In this document: positions 27,776 through 60,662 of the stretch, piece by piece
How positions within the stretch are numbered: the stretch's first letter is position 1
Layout of the letters: every line of letters starts with the position of its first letter
From: Eledone cirrhosa
Taxonomy: Eukaryota
Reading direction: 5' to 3'
Assembly (NCBI GenBank): GCA_964016885.1
Contig: OZ024743.1
Coordinates: 331,514,001 to 331,578,000, forward strand
DNA length: 64,000 nucleotides
The notes under the pieces: generated by a model
Told to the model about the DNA's origin: nothing
Databases searched by the model: none
The model's input: only the letters and a program-made list of their open reading frames with translations
Made by a program: the position numbers and the translations under genes

Positions 27776-27834
27776 GCTGTCTGATGAGGTCATAGCTGTT
27801 GTATAATGGTTATCACCGAAATATATATAACAGC
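27776..27834 (+). ncRNA. Type I hammerhead ribozyme motif (Penelope-associated type)
   Basis: gctgt-CTGATGA-[stem II ggtcatagctgtt/aatggttatcacc]-GAAA-TATATA-TA-acagc, giving a 5-bp stem I and a palindromic stem III. Confidence 0.7.
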
Positions 27835-28017
27835 AGCTATGAATAAATGAAGTTAATGTTAACCTGTTGAGTTACGCTTATTATTATATATATATAGTCC
27901 CACCCTTACTAGCAGGGAAATTGGATGTTAAATGACTATATAACATACAGACACACACACATACACACACACACACACACACACACACACACACACACAC
28001 ACACACACACACACACC

Positions 28018-28185
28018 TTGCTCATACGTTCCAAATATTGCATGGTTTCTTCAGCTGGATGACTTTCCTAATGTCAACTCCCTGTGCATTTTATCATGAG
28101 ACCAGCATAAGCCTTACAGAGTGGACTGGGTGCTCTTTCCTCATGTCATCAACACTGAAGAGGTTGTCATGTACATATTAAGACT
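28018..28185 (-). mobile_element. Degenerate SINE / RTE-tail fragment
   Basis: ggtttcttcagctggatgactttcctaatg is the reverse complement of the aggaagggcatccagctg motif. Confidence 0.55.
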
Positions 28186-28452
28186 AAACAGTCCTCTCTA
28201 CACTATATTGTCTCCATGACCCTGTGTGTGTGTGTGAGTGAATGTAGATGTGACCAAGTTGTTAAGTTTAGCTTCATAATCATAAAGACAAAAGTTCAAC
28301 CCCACTTCATGGTCCCTTGGGCAAATATATATTTGCCAAACCCTTCCTTATATCAACCAAAAAACTATGTGCGTGTGTGTGTGTGTGTGTGCGCGTGTAC
28401 TTATATATACATACATACATACACATACATACACACAATAATGAAATACATG

Positions 28453-30994
28453 GAAAGCAAACCTGCTGTTGGCGACAGACGAAGTCTGTGGCTGGAGCAG
28501 GCCTGTAGGCAGGAGGAGAGTAACATGGTGGTGGAACAGTAAGGTGGAGGGGTCAATTAAGGCCAAAAAGCAGGCTTGGAAAGTATGGCGGGATGGGGGA
28601 AGTAGAGAAGACTATCAAGTGGCCAGGAGGGAAGCTAGGAGACAAGTGTACTTAGCAAGAAGGGAAGCTGAGGAAAGAAAGTTCAAGCATGTTCTACAAC
28701 GCGATGACCAAAAACGTGAGGTGTTCAGGATTGCTAGGCAATGCGTCAAGGAAAACCGTGATATTGTCGGGGAGAAGTGTGTACTAAACGACGATGGCAC
28801 ACTTGCCATCACCGACGCTGATAAGAAGGTAGCTTGGAAGTGTCACTATGAAAGGCTACTAAATGAGGAGAATAAATGGGAGAAAGACAGTCTCCCCCAT
28901 ATCGACCCAATAGAGGGACCAGCAGTGTTAGTCGAGGGGAGTATAATAAGTAAGGCAATCAAGGATATGAAGACGGGTAAGGCGGCTGGGCCTTCGGAAA
29001 TAGTTGCTGAGATGCTGAAGGCATCTGGCACGGTGGGACACACCATGGTCACCCGCATAGTTAACCAAGTCGTACAGAATGGGGTTGTTCCGAAGGACTG
29101 GCATAGCAGCATCATCGTTAACTGTTATAAGGGTAAAGGAGACGCCCTAGATAGGAGTAACTATAGAGGCATTAAATTAATCGACCAGGTCATGAAGGTC
29201 ACAGAAAAAGTAATAGCGCAACTAATCAGAGAGAGAATTGACCTAGATGAAATGCAGTTCGGGTTTGTGTCAGGCAAAAGTACCACAGACGCTCTTTTCA
29301 TAGTACGACAACTACAGGAGAAGTACCTAGCTAAAGGTAAACCCCTCTACTTAGCTTTTGTCGACTTGGAGAAAGCCTTCGACAGAGTCCCCCGCTCCAT
29401 TATCTGGTGGGCTCTTAGAAAACTAGGCGTTGACGAATGGCTTGTGAGGGCTATACAAGCCATGTATAAAGAAACAGTCAGCAAGGTTAGAATTAACAAC
29501 GAATATAGTGAAGAGTTTAGCGTAAAAGTTGGCGTCCATCAGGGCTCTGTTCTCAGCCCACTACTATTTATTATTGCCCTTCAGGCTATAACAGAGGAGT
29601 TCAAGACAGGCTGCCCATGGGAACTCCTATACACAGACGACCTGACACTCATAGCGGAATCAATGGCCGAGCTAGAGAAGAAATTCCAAACATGGAAGCA
29701 CGGCCTAGAGTCAAAAGGACTTAAAATTAACCTGGCTAAGACCAAAGTACTAGTTTGTAGGAAAGAAAACAAGGCGGCGGTCCCTTCTGGGAAATGGTCG
29801 TGCTCGGTGTGTAGGAAAGGCGTAGGTAGAAACTCCATTTTATGTCCTAAATGCAAAGTATGGGTGCATAAAAGATGTAGTGGGATCACAGGTAAGCTAA
29901 CTAAGAACATAGATTTTACATGTGGCCGGTGCTCTGGTGCAATAAGTAGCAGCAAGTGCCCACAAAATACTAGCTCTTTCAATTGCGCAGAGGGTTCTAT
30001 AGAAATAGTGGACAGCTTCCGTTACCTGGGCGATAAAATCAGCAGTGGGGGAGGGTGCTCTGAAAGTACTGTAGCTAGAGTCAGAACTGGTTGGAAAAAG
30101 TTCAGAGAGCTTATACCACTATTAGCTGCTAAAGGGTTCTCCCTAAAAATGAAAGGCAGGTTGTACGATGCCTGCATACGAACAGCAATGCTGCATGGCA
30201 GTGAGACCTGGGCATTGTGTGCAGAGGATATACGCAGACTAGAGAGGAACGAAGCTTGCATGCTCCGCTGGATGTGTAACAGTAATATACGTGAACGGCA
30301 AAGCATAAACGAACTAAGGAAAAAATTAGAGATAAGAGGGATCGGATGTTGTTTGCTCGAGAGAAGGCTACGTTGGTATGGACACGTGATGCGCATGAAA
30401 GTCGATAGCTGTATAACAAAGTGCAGGGCAATAAAGATAGACGGTAGTCACGGAATAGGCAGACCTAGAAAAACCTGGGACGAGCTGATAAACTCCGACA
30501 TCACACACTTACACCTCTCCAAGCCAATGTCACTGGACCGAGACCTTTGGCGGTACTCTGTAACAGAGAAGACCCGCCTTACCTAAATATATAGTAAAAC
30601 CTACTCCAGCCAGTAGGCATCTCTAACAAAATACACCCCGTCCCACCACCACCACCCCCACCCCATCCACACCACCCCGTTCTATGTAAAGTTATGTTGG
30701 TGCCGCGCCATCGAGGCCGAAACAAATGAGATCGTGTAGGTGTCACGACAAAAAAACACACAGTCCACGCTGTAATGTGGCCGTGTAGGCAACACGGTAA
30801 AAACCTCCCAGACCCACACTGTAAATGTGGTTGGTGTTAGGAAGGGCATCCAGCTATAGAAAACCTGCCAGACAGTCCTATGCGAGCAAGACAATCACTC
30901 TTGCCTCAAGTGGGACTACCCCCGTCCAAACCCATGCAAGCGTGGAACACGGACGTTAAACGTTGATGATGATGATGATGATGATGATGATGAT
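28453..30994 (+). mobile_element. RTE-clade LINE, subfamily A, 5'-truncated; ORF 28469-30586 (RT with inserted PHD finger), 3'UTR and (GAT)n tail
   Basis: RT motifs NYRGIKL, QFGF, FVDLEKAFD, GVHQGSVLSPLLF, YTDD (YADD variant), FRYLG and the RTE C-terminal RRLRWYGHV.R...GRPRKTW are all present. No endonuclease domain. Confidence 0.93.
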
Positions 30995-31125
30995 GGGTTG
31001 AATGAACATCTTCCTTACAGCCACCACCTGTGAGGTATATATGTCTGGATGTGTGTGTATATATATATAAATATATATATATCAATAATATTAATAAATG
31101 GAAACTATCTTTATAAAACCATATT

Positions 31126-58206: not shown

Positions 58207-59146
58207 CTCTCTTCCTGCTACTTCAAACGTTAAACTAATATATATCTACAATGTAATGTGCCGTTTATTTTGTTATTTCTGTTTATCTTTTACATACATA
58301 TATATATCCAGAGTTGACACTGTACATACCAAAGATCAGAATCCTTCTCCACTTCATGCCACATTCAAATTTTCATTAATTTTCGATTGGAAGTTATCTC
58401 CCTTACCATCCTTGACAAGAATTATCATTAAAACACACATGAGATATTCTCTATATTACAGATGTAATTTTCATTTATCAAAACACTAGCTTATATATAT
58501 TATGCATATAAGATCCCACCACCAGCACCATCATCACAACATAACTGTGTTTTTCATGCTGAAGGCATCCCTGAGAAATATTCTCCATGTCAGTATTTTT
58601 ACATTGCTTGTTAGTGTGCTTCCAGCAAAGTAAACAATATTATTACATATTTCTCATCTGCTACAGGCTGTATTTACAATTTTCATGAAGTGTATCACAT
58701 GTTAGTATCAGTTACCATGTCATAAATAATATCTACACCTTACTAGAGGGTGTATATGGAGGGTGTATATGTCTTCCTCTGTATAGAATTTCAACATTTT
58801 TCAATAGAGTTGTTTGTATAGCTGCTAAGTTTGTCAGACAGCACATGTTTCTCTGGCAGCTATATATATATATATATATATACACACACACACACACACA
58901 CACACATATATATATATATATAAACATATATATATATACATATAAACATATATATACATATAAACATATATATATATATACATATATATATACACATATA
59001 TATATACACATATAAACATATATACATATATATATATATATATATATATATATATAAACATATATATATATATATATAAACATATATATATATATATAAA
59101 CATATATATATATATATATATATACATATAAACATATACATATATA

Positions 59147-59517
59147 TCATCATCATCATCATCATCACCGTTTTACGTCCGTTCTTCCACGCTAGCATGG
59201 GTTAGACGGGTTGTCCTGTTGTGGGCAGTGTCTGGTCGTCTGACCATGCCTTGCTCATACAGGAACTGATCTGGCTTGATTTCTACAGCTGGATGCCCTT
59301 CCTAACACCAACCTCATTTACAGTGAGTGCTGGGTGCTTTTTCGTGGCGCCTACACGTCCACTTTACAGTGTGGGCTGGGTGCTTTTTTGCCGTGGCACC
59401 TCCACGACCACCTTGCGGTGGGGGGGGGGGGGGGGGGGCATATAGTTTATATGCTTCAGCATGTACCCATGGGAAGTCGGGTACCCTGTATTACTGCGTG
59501 ACGCCAGAAGTCACGGT
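59147..59517 (-). mobile_element. RTE subfamily B 3' end (last codons, 3'UTR, tail), flanked by (AT)n
   Basis: Reverse complement of about 33240-33602. Confidence 0.85.
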
Positions 59518-59727
59518 ATATATATATCTAAACATATATATATATATATATATATATACATATATATATATATATATATATATATAAACATATACATATA
59601 TATATATATATATATATATAAACATATACGTATATATATAAACATATACGTATATATATAAACATATACATATATATATAAACATATATATATATATATA
59701 TATATATATATATATATATATATACAA

Positions 59728-60212
59728 ATCATCATCATCATTTTACGTCCGCTCTTCCCTGCTTGCAAGGGTGGGACGGGTCTTATTCAGCACAGCATCT
59801 CTCCACTTGTCACGGTCCTCCGTCATCTCCATCTCCACCGTGAGCTTCAGTGATCTGAGGTCTGTTCTCACCACCTCCGCCCATGTTTTTCATCGTCTAC
59901 CTCTACCACGTCTTCCTTCAACTGGCATTTCCTGGCACTTCTTCACCCATCGGTCATCCTCCATGCACATCACATGTCCATACCACCTCAGTCTCCTCTC
60001 CCGTACACTACATTCTATCCCTCTCAGACACAGTTTCTCTCTCAACACATTCATGCTGGGTCGTTCATGCACATTGACTCTGCACATCCAACGGAGCCTG
60101 CTTGCCTCATTTCTCTCCAGCCGTCGCATATCCTCTGCAGTTGCTGCCCATGTATCACTACCATGCAGCATCGCGCTCCTCACACAGGCATCATATAACC
60201 GGCCTTTCGTAC
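59728..60212 (-). mobile_element. RTE LINE of a third subfamily, 3' fragment with a short 3'UTR
   Basis: KGRLYDACVRSAMLHGSDTW...RRLRWYGHV...GRRGRGR. The tail cccacccttgcaagcaggg...ggacgtaaaa(tga)n also occurs at about 54620 and 54860. Confidence 0.85.
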
Positions 60213-60591
60213 GCATATATACATACATATATATATACACACACACATATACATATATACACATATAAACATATATATATACAAATATACATATACATAA
60301 ACATGTCTTCCAACGGCTTTTTAATTTCTCTCTGTGAGACAATATATATTTTTTCTCAGTTGTAAAGGCTATCTCTCTCTCTCTATCACCCATCTCTCCT
60401 CCTCTCTCATCCTTCCTTCTTATACTTCTCCCCCCATTATTATTTACTCTCATCTCCTCCTCTTCCTTACCTTTTCCACCACTACCCTCACTTTTTCCCA
60501 ATCTCACACATCAATCTTAAATTATTTTTCATATGTTGATTTAAAACTTCACTATTCACAAGTGTTTTTTAACCTTCATATCATGTATCCC

Positions 60592-60662
60592 TATTTTATC
60601 TGATGAAAACGCAGATATCACCCAATGATGATATTTGTTTTTGAAATGCGCATAATAAAATA
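60592..60662 (+). ncRNA. Type I hammerhead ribozyme motif
   Basis: tattttat-CTGATGA-[aaacgcagatatca...tgatatttgttttt]-GAAA-TGCGCA-TA-ataaaata, with an 8-bp stem I and palindromic stem III. Confidence 0.75.

Follow-up and report, generated by a model that had tools for sequence, protein, structure and literature searches.

Hammerhead-shaped motifs in a 64-kb window of the Eledone cirrhosa genome appear to be mostly 3' ends of Penelope-like elements

A stretch of 64,000 nucleotides from Eledone cirrhosa (hereafter the window; contig OZ024743.1 of assembly GCA_964016885.1, positions 331,514,001 to 331,578,000, forward strand) contains nine sites that an earlier note, made from the letters alone, had described as hammerhead ribozyme motifs of one architecture. 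What kind of element carries these motifs, and what might the hammerheads do for it? Here, the hammerhead-shaped motifs of the window were found to be real, and the sequence flanking their relatives identifies those of six of the eight families as 3' ends of autonomous Penelope-like elements (PLEs) rather than tandem retrozymes. Very probably, type I hammerhead folds lie in the 3' repeats (pseudo-long terminal repeats, pLTRs) of several PLE families, mostly of the Hydra clade; the copies left behind in TA repeats are short and in many cases inverted, likely through incomplete reverse transcription, and the folds are predicted to cut the element RNA.

Each of the nine coordinates holds the letters described for it. 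The sites belong to eight insertions, however, since 31126(-) and 31317(+) are the arms of one inverted insertion and not separate motifs. The insertions (families A to H) and two further elements among them are as follows.

27700..27896, forward: short pLTR copy of family B with an internal deletion, ending in (TA)n.
27776-27834, forward: family B hammerhead, predicted cut after 27829 (AUA), palindromic stem III.
31082..31246, reverse: inverted arm of family A with the short 3' end; hammerhead 31126-31187.
31247..31397, forward: direct arm of family A; hammerhead 31317-31378, predicted cut after 31370.
31398..33606, forward: 5'-truncated long interspersed element (LINE) inside the family A copy, with reverse transcriptase (RT), PHD finger and (GAT)n end; Pfam RVT_1 and PHD on a sister copy.
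33607..33728, forward: long "tail" that completes the direct arm of family A and runs out in (TA)n, compared with loci L002 and L009.
36820..37320, forward: broken GIY-YIG endonuclease remnant of another PLE family (sub-threshold Pfam match, E value 0.0096); its own hammerhead is missing here.
44677..45038, forward: family C insertion flanked by (TA)n runs; hammerhead 44787-44844 with U-U at 10.1-11.1 and a non-palindromic stem III.
47301..47556, forward: family D insertion with an inverted 5' piece of 12 nt; hammerhead 47341-47433 with a long stem II, a palindromic stem III and the cut site GUA.
47628..47675, reverse: half motif of family H, with GAAA, a long stem III, GUC and the 3' stem I strand only.
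54257..54450, reverse: old copy of family E, at about 80% to its relatives, whose upstream arm is inverted; it holds the hammerhead 54295-54342.
58089..58300, forward: family F insertion; minimal hammerhead 58171-58206 with an extra A before G10.1-C11.1 and a loopless ACGU stem III.
60310..60704, forward: last 0.4 kb of a young Hydra-clade PLE of family G (98% to relatives); hammerhead 60592-60662 with palindromic AUGCGCAU.

The word AAAGAT occurs at 31392-31397 and again at 33607-33612, flanking the LINE inside the family A copy.

A CUGANGA and GAAA core with an NUH cut site in type I order was present at eight of the nine sites. When a strict type I descriptor was applied (CUGANGA; stem I of at least 4 bp; at least three of the first four stem II pairs; 15.2-16.2 paired), five sites of the 64-kb window passed (cores at 27781+, 31179-, 31325+, 47347+ and 60600+), whereas 200 local dinucleotide shuffles of the window gave a mean of 0.115 matches and a maximum of 1; this comparison, proposed in the earlier note, comes out on the side of genuine motifs. 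In sixty evenly spaced 10-kb stretches (600 kb), 41 descriptor matches were obtained versus 0-4 in ten shuffles. Across the 3.0-Gb assembly, the pattern CTGANGA-N15-45-GAAA-TRYRYA-TA matched 108,720 times versus 211 for its reversed control. Rfam is said to model such hammerhead variants poorly. The Rfam search, also suggested as a check, did not recover the motifs: 146 matches were returned for the window at E<=5, with no hammerhead among them.

The sites at 44791, 54337, 58175 and 47641 failed the strict descriptor. At 44791 (family C), a 4-bp stem I, the U-U at 10.1-11.1 and the non-palindromic TGTTCA are all family-wide, and a palindromic TGATCA form of the middle was seen in 5 of 26 parsed copies. 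At 54337 (family E), the middle is not a hexamer but 8 nt long (CTCCAGTG), and it is non-palindromic. The first stem I pair is broken at 54337 and at 58175 (family F); a pairing TCTT/AAGA stem was found in 5 of the 7 parsed relatives of 58175, and a pairing stem in just 3 of the 6 of 54337. The claim that the stem III hexamers are palindromic or nearly so stands for several sites, but not for TGTTCA and the 8-nt middle. The site at 47641 had been taken for a damaged motif, but it is not a mutated core: only the GAAA half of a longer motif is present there, and longer copies have the whole motif, with U3-A8 or C3-A8 in the core.

Stem I pairing and its covariation held as claimed. The pairing extended over at least 5 bp in 31 of the 35 matches found by the core alone, whereas strands swapped between the 10 motif classes paired in only 3 of 88 trials. 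For the window motifs, stem III self-dimer energies ranged from -1.7 to -10.5 kcal/mol, and no stem III formed a hairpin alone. As folds, the motifs bear out type I hammerheads of the Penelope kind, several with a palindromic stem III suited to dimer cleavage.

Some further features of the motifs were observed. In family B (27788-27841, +), loop II repeats the stem I word GCTGT, which offers the 3' strand a second partner; the minimum free energy (MFE) fold adopts this inactive pairing with the loop, a possible switch. AATAAA lies at most 25 nt past the predicted cut site in seven of the eight complete motifs (window 27829-27850, 31370, 31134, 44840, 47427, 54300 and 60654) and overlaps stem I in A and G; it could be a candidate poly(A) signal. 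A tenth hammerhead remnant, missed in the earlier note, lies at 54120-54185(-), with stem II, GAAA and a 14-nt stem III retained, the core cut off and the cut site altered. Its family is intact in loci L117 and L124.

The link to PLEs comes from the sequence upstream of the motifs. Whereas the elements had been thought to be independent and non-autonomous, six of the eight families continue upstream into an endonuclease open reading frame (ORF): longer copies of A, B, D, G and H run into one of Hydra-clade type, and F, through a sister copy in L096, lies behind another type of GIY-YIG ORF. In a family G locus (L155), an ORF with RT-thumb and endonuclease is followed by the hammerhead 1161 nt downstream, with an inverted copy at the 5' end. 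Of 10 long family A copies, 3 (L363, L364 and L369) have a same-strand endonuclease of Hydra type upstream, as do, about 1 kb away, 3 of 25 family B copies (L422, L430 and L432); one further family B copy is directly followed by an RT start. For family D, the endonuclease lies 1.5-1.8 kb upstream in L407, L410 and L411, that is, in three of the four re-fetched loci with a same-strand endonuclease match. The family H ORF was found in L226. The untranslated regions (UTRs) of the linked elements measure 1.0-1.8 kb. ORFs beside B in L222 and beside C in L048 were rejected as family links: both are part of a further PLE family that has a 3' end of its own.

The G frame (760 aa) and the H frame (710 aa) share 41% identity, and both carry RW[IR], SDKT, YRDD, CxCX5C, CxxC and CxH and lack CCHH. 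Families A, B and D were assigned to Hydra by tblastn similarity and partial motifs only. Atlas matches at 0.96-0.99 were to clusters with GIY-YIG or RVT_1 members. Both the window copies and the fetched loci are inserted into (TA)n. GAGTGCT is common to the tails of A, B, C and D, and GAGTACT occurs in the H tail motif, which hints that family C is also Hydra. As reported previously, Hydra-clade elements are marked by a C-terminal GIY-YIG, a CxCX5C linker, the lack of CCHH, DKT and (TA)n targets (PMC8557442, Craig et al. 2021).

Several points weigh against this attribution. Cutting of RNA by the motifs is a prediction from the fold, and monomer MFE folds of the window copies give the full hammerhead only partly. 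The Hydra clade call is based on motifs and not on an RT tree, and searches of Pfam and PDB gave no match for the Hydra-type ORFs. The family D link crosses TA runs, which were read as part of the UTR of D, and that of family F runs only through its sister copy. No ORF was found for family C in 10 long copies, which share at least 1.3 kb of non-coding upstream sequence, and family E has no ORF link, the upstream walk having been made for C and not for E. Families C and E could be non-autonomous.

The GIY-YIG remnant in the window had been offered as a sign that a candidate mobiliser class is present. The remnant is real, but it was rejected as a partner of any of the nine motifs: in its relatives (L049, L096, L101 and L122), the hammerhead that follows 200-225 nt downstream is a different one. 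Two broken frames lie nearby, at 34719-35469(+) and 37275-37780(+), the second of which cuts off the remnant. We take them to resemble the restriction-like endonuclease ends of other non-LTR elements; Pfam gave no support for an endonuclease reading of these frames. More PLE families with their own hammerheads were seen in L222 (3000-5060, -), L101, L146 and L150, some with a U3-A8 core. This core was combined with a palindromic 8-nt middle in three copies and is thus not confined to family H.

All eight families are dispersed repeats, in agreement with the multi-copy families that had been expected. First-look candidates, which are not copy numbers, amounted to 1,275 for A (31317), 2,104 for B (27776), 2,909 for C (44787), 3,381 for D (47341), 1,853 for E (54294), 3,592 for F (58171), 1,441 for G (60592) and 660 for H (47641); the endonuclease query gave 60,958 first-look candidates in the genome. 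The scaled genome total is about 198,000 hammerhead motifs (bootstrap 113,000-293,000), and the 600-kb sample is noisy (12 matches of the TRYRYA pattern given above versus 21.8 expected). The genome load is estimated at more than 100,000 motifs, about 2x10^5 in all, and may, at no fewer than 36 per Mb, be among the densest known. The axolotl genome is about ten times larger. The highest published count that we met is up to 120,000, in axolotl (PMC7229834).

Family H is the most informative about how short copies end. In complete copies, a stem I of 5 bp is followed by UUGAGAA, a large-looped stem II, GAAA, a long hairpin as stem III (-7.1 kcal/mol) and GUC. Opposite A8, position 3 is U in 15 of the 27 complete copies and C in 12; the C3-A8 form is a broken core pair and makes up a large share of the listed H matches. 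U3-A8 is a natural variant known in Schistosoma (PMC4209133). Exact matches in the genome numbered 54,367 for the GAAA half, 29,424 for the tail motif and 1,680 for the CUGA half, with 0 for the controls. The copy at 47641 belongs to this family, marked by its long stem III and U3-A8 core, as a 5'-truncated half.

The 5' ends of 78 tail-anchored H copies from the first 19 Mb of contig C1 were mapped against one natural reference. Forty-four of these ends lay at -47 to -28 relative to the cut site and none from -115 to -57; 7 copies extended past the core. No clear pile-up, as a genomic trace of self-cleavage, was seen at the cut site itself, where 4 of the 78 ends lay. Incidental H copies agree with this mapping, and the window copy starts 30 nt before the cut site. 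The H edge falls inside the ribozyme, in stem II/loop II.

A second fixed edge was found in a G-type subfamily. Its 21-mer matched 10,165 times, 8,705 times with five more upstream bases and 3,460 times with the next five. That is, 86% of copies survive the 5 nt before the edge and 40% the following 5 nt, with the drop at TTTTC|ATATG, to which upstream sequence variation could add. In family B, nothing is shared upstream of a zone about 35 nt wide (12 loci). Edges are diffuse elsewhere: family W ends are dispersed, and those of the TRYRYA families cover positions -60 to -110 relative to the core and show a long tail, in a noisy automated mapping. Compared with the Initiator consensus, the H and G edges sit on pyrimidine-purine Initiator-like words.

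Do these edges mark the start of the RNA? We regard it as roughly an even call that the fixed 5' edge of short copies would correspond to the transcription start, which would then lie at -41 in H and -128 in G relative to the cut site. PLE pLTRs are reported to have internal promoters and a TCACT Initiator-like motif (PMC2377424, PMC3846280). The alternative, that the reverse transcriptase stalls or switches template at RNA structure, is a serious possibility without being the probable one. It would suit the position of the H edge within stem II/loop II, the diffuse ends of the TRYRYA and W families, and the weak outcome of the tests for a cap-derived G, all of which are confounded by microhomology: 351 C..G versus 176 G..C at H junctions, 1,676 of at most 5,245 at the G-type edge, and 12 of 30 non-T junctions in fetched loci. 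The corresponding pattern for family C gave 0 matches and was uninformative. Against stalling, the G-type edge is sharp and sits outside the ribozyme, some 70 nt upstream of its core; the Initiator-like words at the edges and the internal promoters of pLTRs also speak against it.

How might such copies arise? An anole PLE protein nicks AT-rich DNA on both strands, and copying begins within the RNA from two sites, which set the tail; uncut RNA serves as the template, and the protein helps the ribozyme fold (PMC11167929). By analogy, the PLE protein here would nick AT-rich DNA on either strand, and copying would begin at either of two positions that lie 50-160 nt beyond the cut site. Since copying would start past the cut site, the template would have to be uncut, or else circular, RNA; the scarcity of H copies whose 5' end lies there (4 of 78) fits an uncut template. 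Copying that stops at or before the RNA 5' end would leave a solo hammerhead, and two early-stopped copies joined at their ends would give an inverted pair. Motifs with a palindromic stem III of 1-2 bp would cut only as dimers, perhaps only with help from the protein, and single genomic copies would therefore be mostly silent. Palindromic-stem III hammerheads are reported to cut as dimers (PMC4209133; review PMC6765202). Dimer cutting would probably release or circularise the element RNA at a later step, whereas the long stem III of family H could allow cutting as a monomer.

A more specific version of this scheme is put forward tentatively and may well prove wrong. Most copies would be "strong-stop" products that run from the tail start site to the capped RNA 5' end, with no jump to copy the ORF, and the fixed edges would map the start of each family. 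The H start would lie inside the ribozyme, so that the 5' copy would be half a ribozyme, unable to cut off the template used for copying, while the 3' copy would be whole; dimer-type families would start upstream of a whole, self-silent motif. If true, this would explain how PLEs with self-cutting RNA in both repeats nevertheless copy uncut RNA.

It is rather unlikely, though hardly negligible, that many motifs are no longer catalytic and that the fold or tail is a handle for the element protein, or a passenger. The frequency of C3 opposite A8 in H speaks for this, as do the family-wide lack of a 10.1-11.1 pair in C and D, the poor cutting of minimal PLE hammerheads (PMC4209133) and the core mutants of the anole PLE, whose insertion in vitro was not impaired (PMC11167929). 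The common C3-A8 form and these mutants would also argue against a strict need for catalysis in the reading that we prefer. Nevertheless, the core and the pairing of stems I and III are kept with unrelated sequences over 10 motif classes, including a C3-G8 to U3-A8 swap, as expected if catalysis was selected in the source elements.

The short units might also be self-propagating non-autonomous elements, either retrozymes or pLTR derivatives resembling short interspersed elements (SINEs), that are transcribed alone and copied in trans. We consider this improbable. Their ends are discrete, short copies far outnumber long ones (54,367 versus 1,680 in H), and C and E have no ORF link; moreover, in a rotifer, mobilisation in trans needs no more than pLTRs (PMC3846280), and a 2026 preprint (Li et al.) derives retrozymes from pLTRs. 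However, retrozymes are non-coding throughout, whereas six of the eight families here continue into ORFs. The tandem arrays that had been envisaged were not found either. Among the first 100 pattern matches on C1, 46 formed 23 head-to-head pairs, and no short same-family tandem was seen (same-strand, same-length neighbours within 600 bp); match length served as a proxy for family, so that one same-strand 306-bp pair of unlike length and sequence was not counted. The two same-strand pairs among these matches were both more than 600 bp apart, and the window holds no tandem array of 150-450 bp hammerhead units. Because the motifs are dispersed or head-to-head, without short tandem units, they are not read as tandem retrozymes. 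Nearly all H insertions have an arm junction of their own, a sign that each arose independently from a longer template. Inverted 5' copies and an optional 3' tail, both pLTR traits, are present among the copies, and families A, B and H show both a short and a long 3' end.

Finally, chance matches in AT-rich, repeat-rich DNA were ruled out as a vanishingly improbable source by the window, 600-kb and genome-wide controls (5 versus 0.115, 41 versus 0-4 and 108,720 versus 211), even with no Rfam hammerhead match and with three copies below the strict descriptor.

Within transcripts, the short perfect inverted pairs, which would number tens of thousands genome-wide, would form double-stranded RNA and might be substrates of A-to-I editing. 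Six fetched copies (L003-L007 and L010; contig C4, 203.8-204.7 Mb and 233.5 Mb) share a stretch of at least 3 kb at 98-99.9% identity, apparently a recent segmental or tandem duplication. The window itself is rich in microsatellites and in LINE copies with RT, PHD finger (Pfam) and (GAT)n end, which we take to be RTE-like. These lie at about 28440-30995, 31398-33606, 40090-42590, 45170-46760, 47780-49686, 60705-61965 and 61966-64000, and in two of them, 112 bp of the 3' UTR are duplicated in tandem (49348-49577 and 61629-61859). A CA-rich satellite of 19 kb with units of 35-37 nt and strong strand skew occupies 6852-26007; a GGT-rich array open in several frames, 37905-39145; and a tandem repeat of 99 bp (6 copies, 96%), 51010-51604. 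A tRNA-Ser(GGA)-like sequence between TA runs at 39994-40066(-) (ARAGORN; Rfam 44.6 bits) may be a SINE head.

Two things make these elements worth following. First, the scale is large, with more than 100,000 exact matches of one subclass that Rfam missed in this window. Second, the PLE copying cycle is unsolved, and thousands of insertion junctions give natural evidence on it and on the purpose of the hammerhead. Family H, with its putative start inside the ribozyme and its U3-A8 and C3-A8 forms, makes the role of the hammerhead directly testable. No cephalopod hammerhead census was found in the literature searched, outside which most subscription papers lie, and the available text of a 2026 octopus repeat annotation uses neither "hammerhead" nor "ribozyme".

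Compared with known systems, the elements most resemble Hydra-clade PLEs, with GIY-YIG and CxCX5C, DKT, (TA)n, a 3' type I hammerhead, inverted 5' copies and tails; the U on both flanks of stem II in family C also recurs in many of the listed Hydra motifs (PMC8557442). The supplement of that paper lists Hydra-1_Obim of Octopus bimaculoides with a hammerhead, which by eye matches none of the eight window motifs, and the U3-A8 core and the stem III of at least 5 bp of family H do not appear in its table. Relative to the Hydra elements described there, at least five families, more than 10^5 motifs and UTRs of 1.0-1.8 kb are found here. The minimal PLE hammerheads of Cervera and de la Pena (2014, PMC4209133) are likewise mostly single motifs from truncated PLEs, with some opposite-strand pairs, a palindromic stem III, an extra base before stem II and a U3-A8 variant, and family F is a textbook case; their counts in the portion available are 2,000-9,000 per genome, however, whereas one subclass here reaches 108,720. 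Non-LTR retrozymes (PMC7229834; Li et al. 2026 preprint) are similar in their animal type I hammerheads, high copy number and relation to pLTRs, but they are tandem, non-coding and 150-450 bp long, while the motifs here are dispersed or head-to-head and continue into ORFs. The Anolis Poseidon PLE PAc (Frangieh et al. 2024, PMC11167929) shares the two copying start sites that yield a tail past the hammerhead; AT-rich targets on both strands and an uncut RNA template would be further likenesses, carried over here from PAc. It belongs to another clade, and the part of that paper available does not mention a fixed 5' edge of genomic short copies. The arrangement is already known, and the window adds families to it, not a new system.

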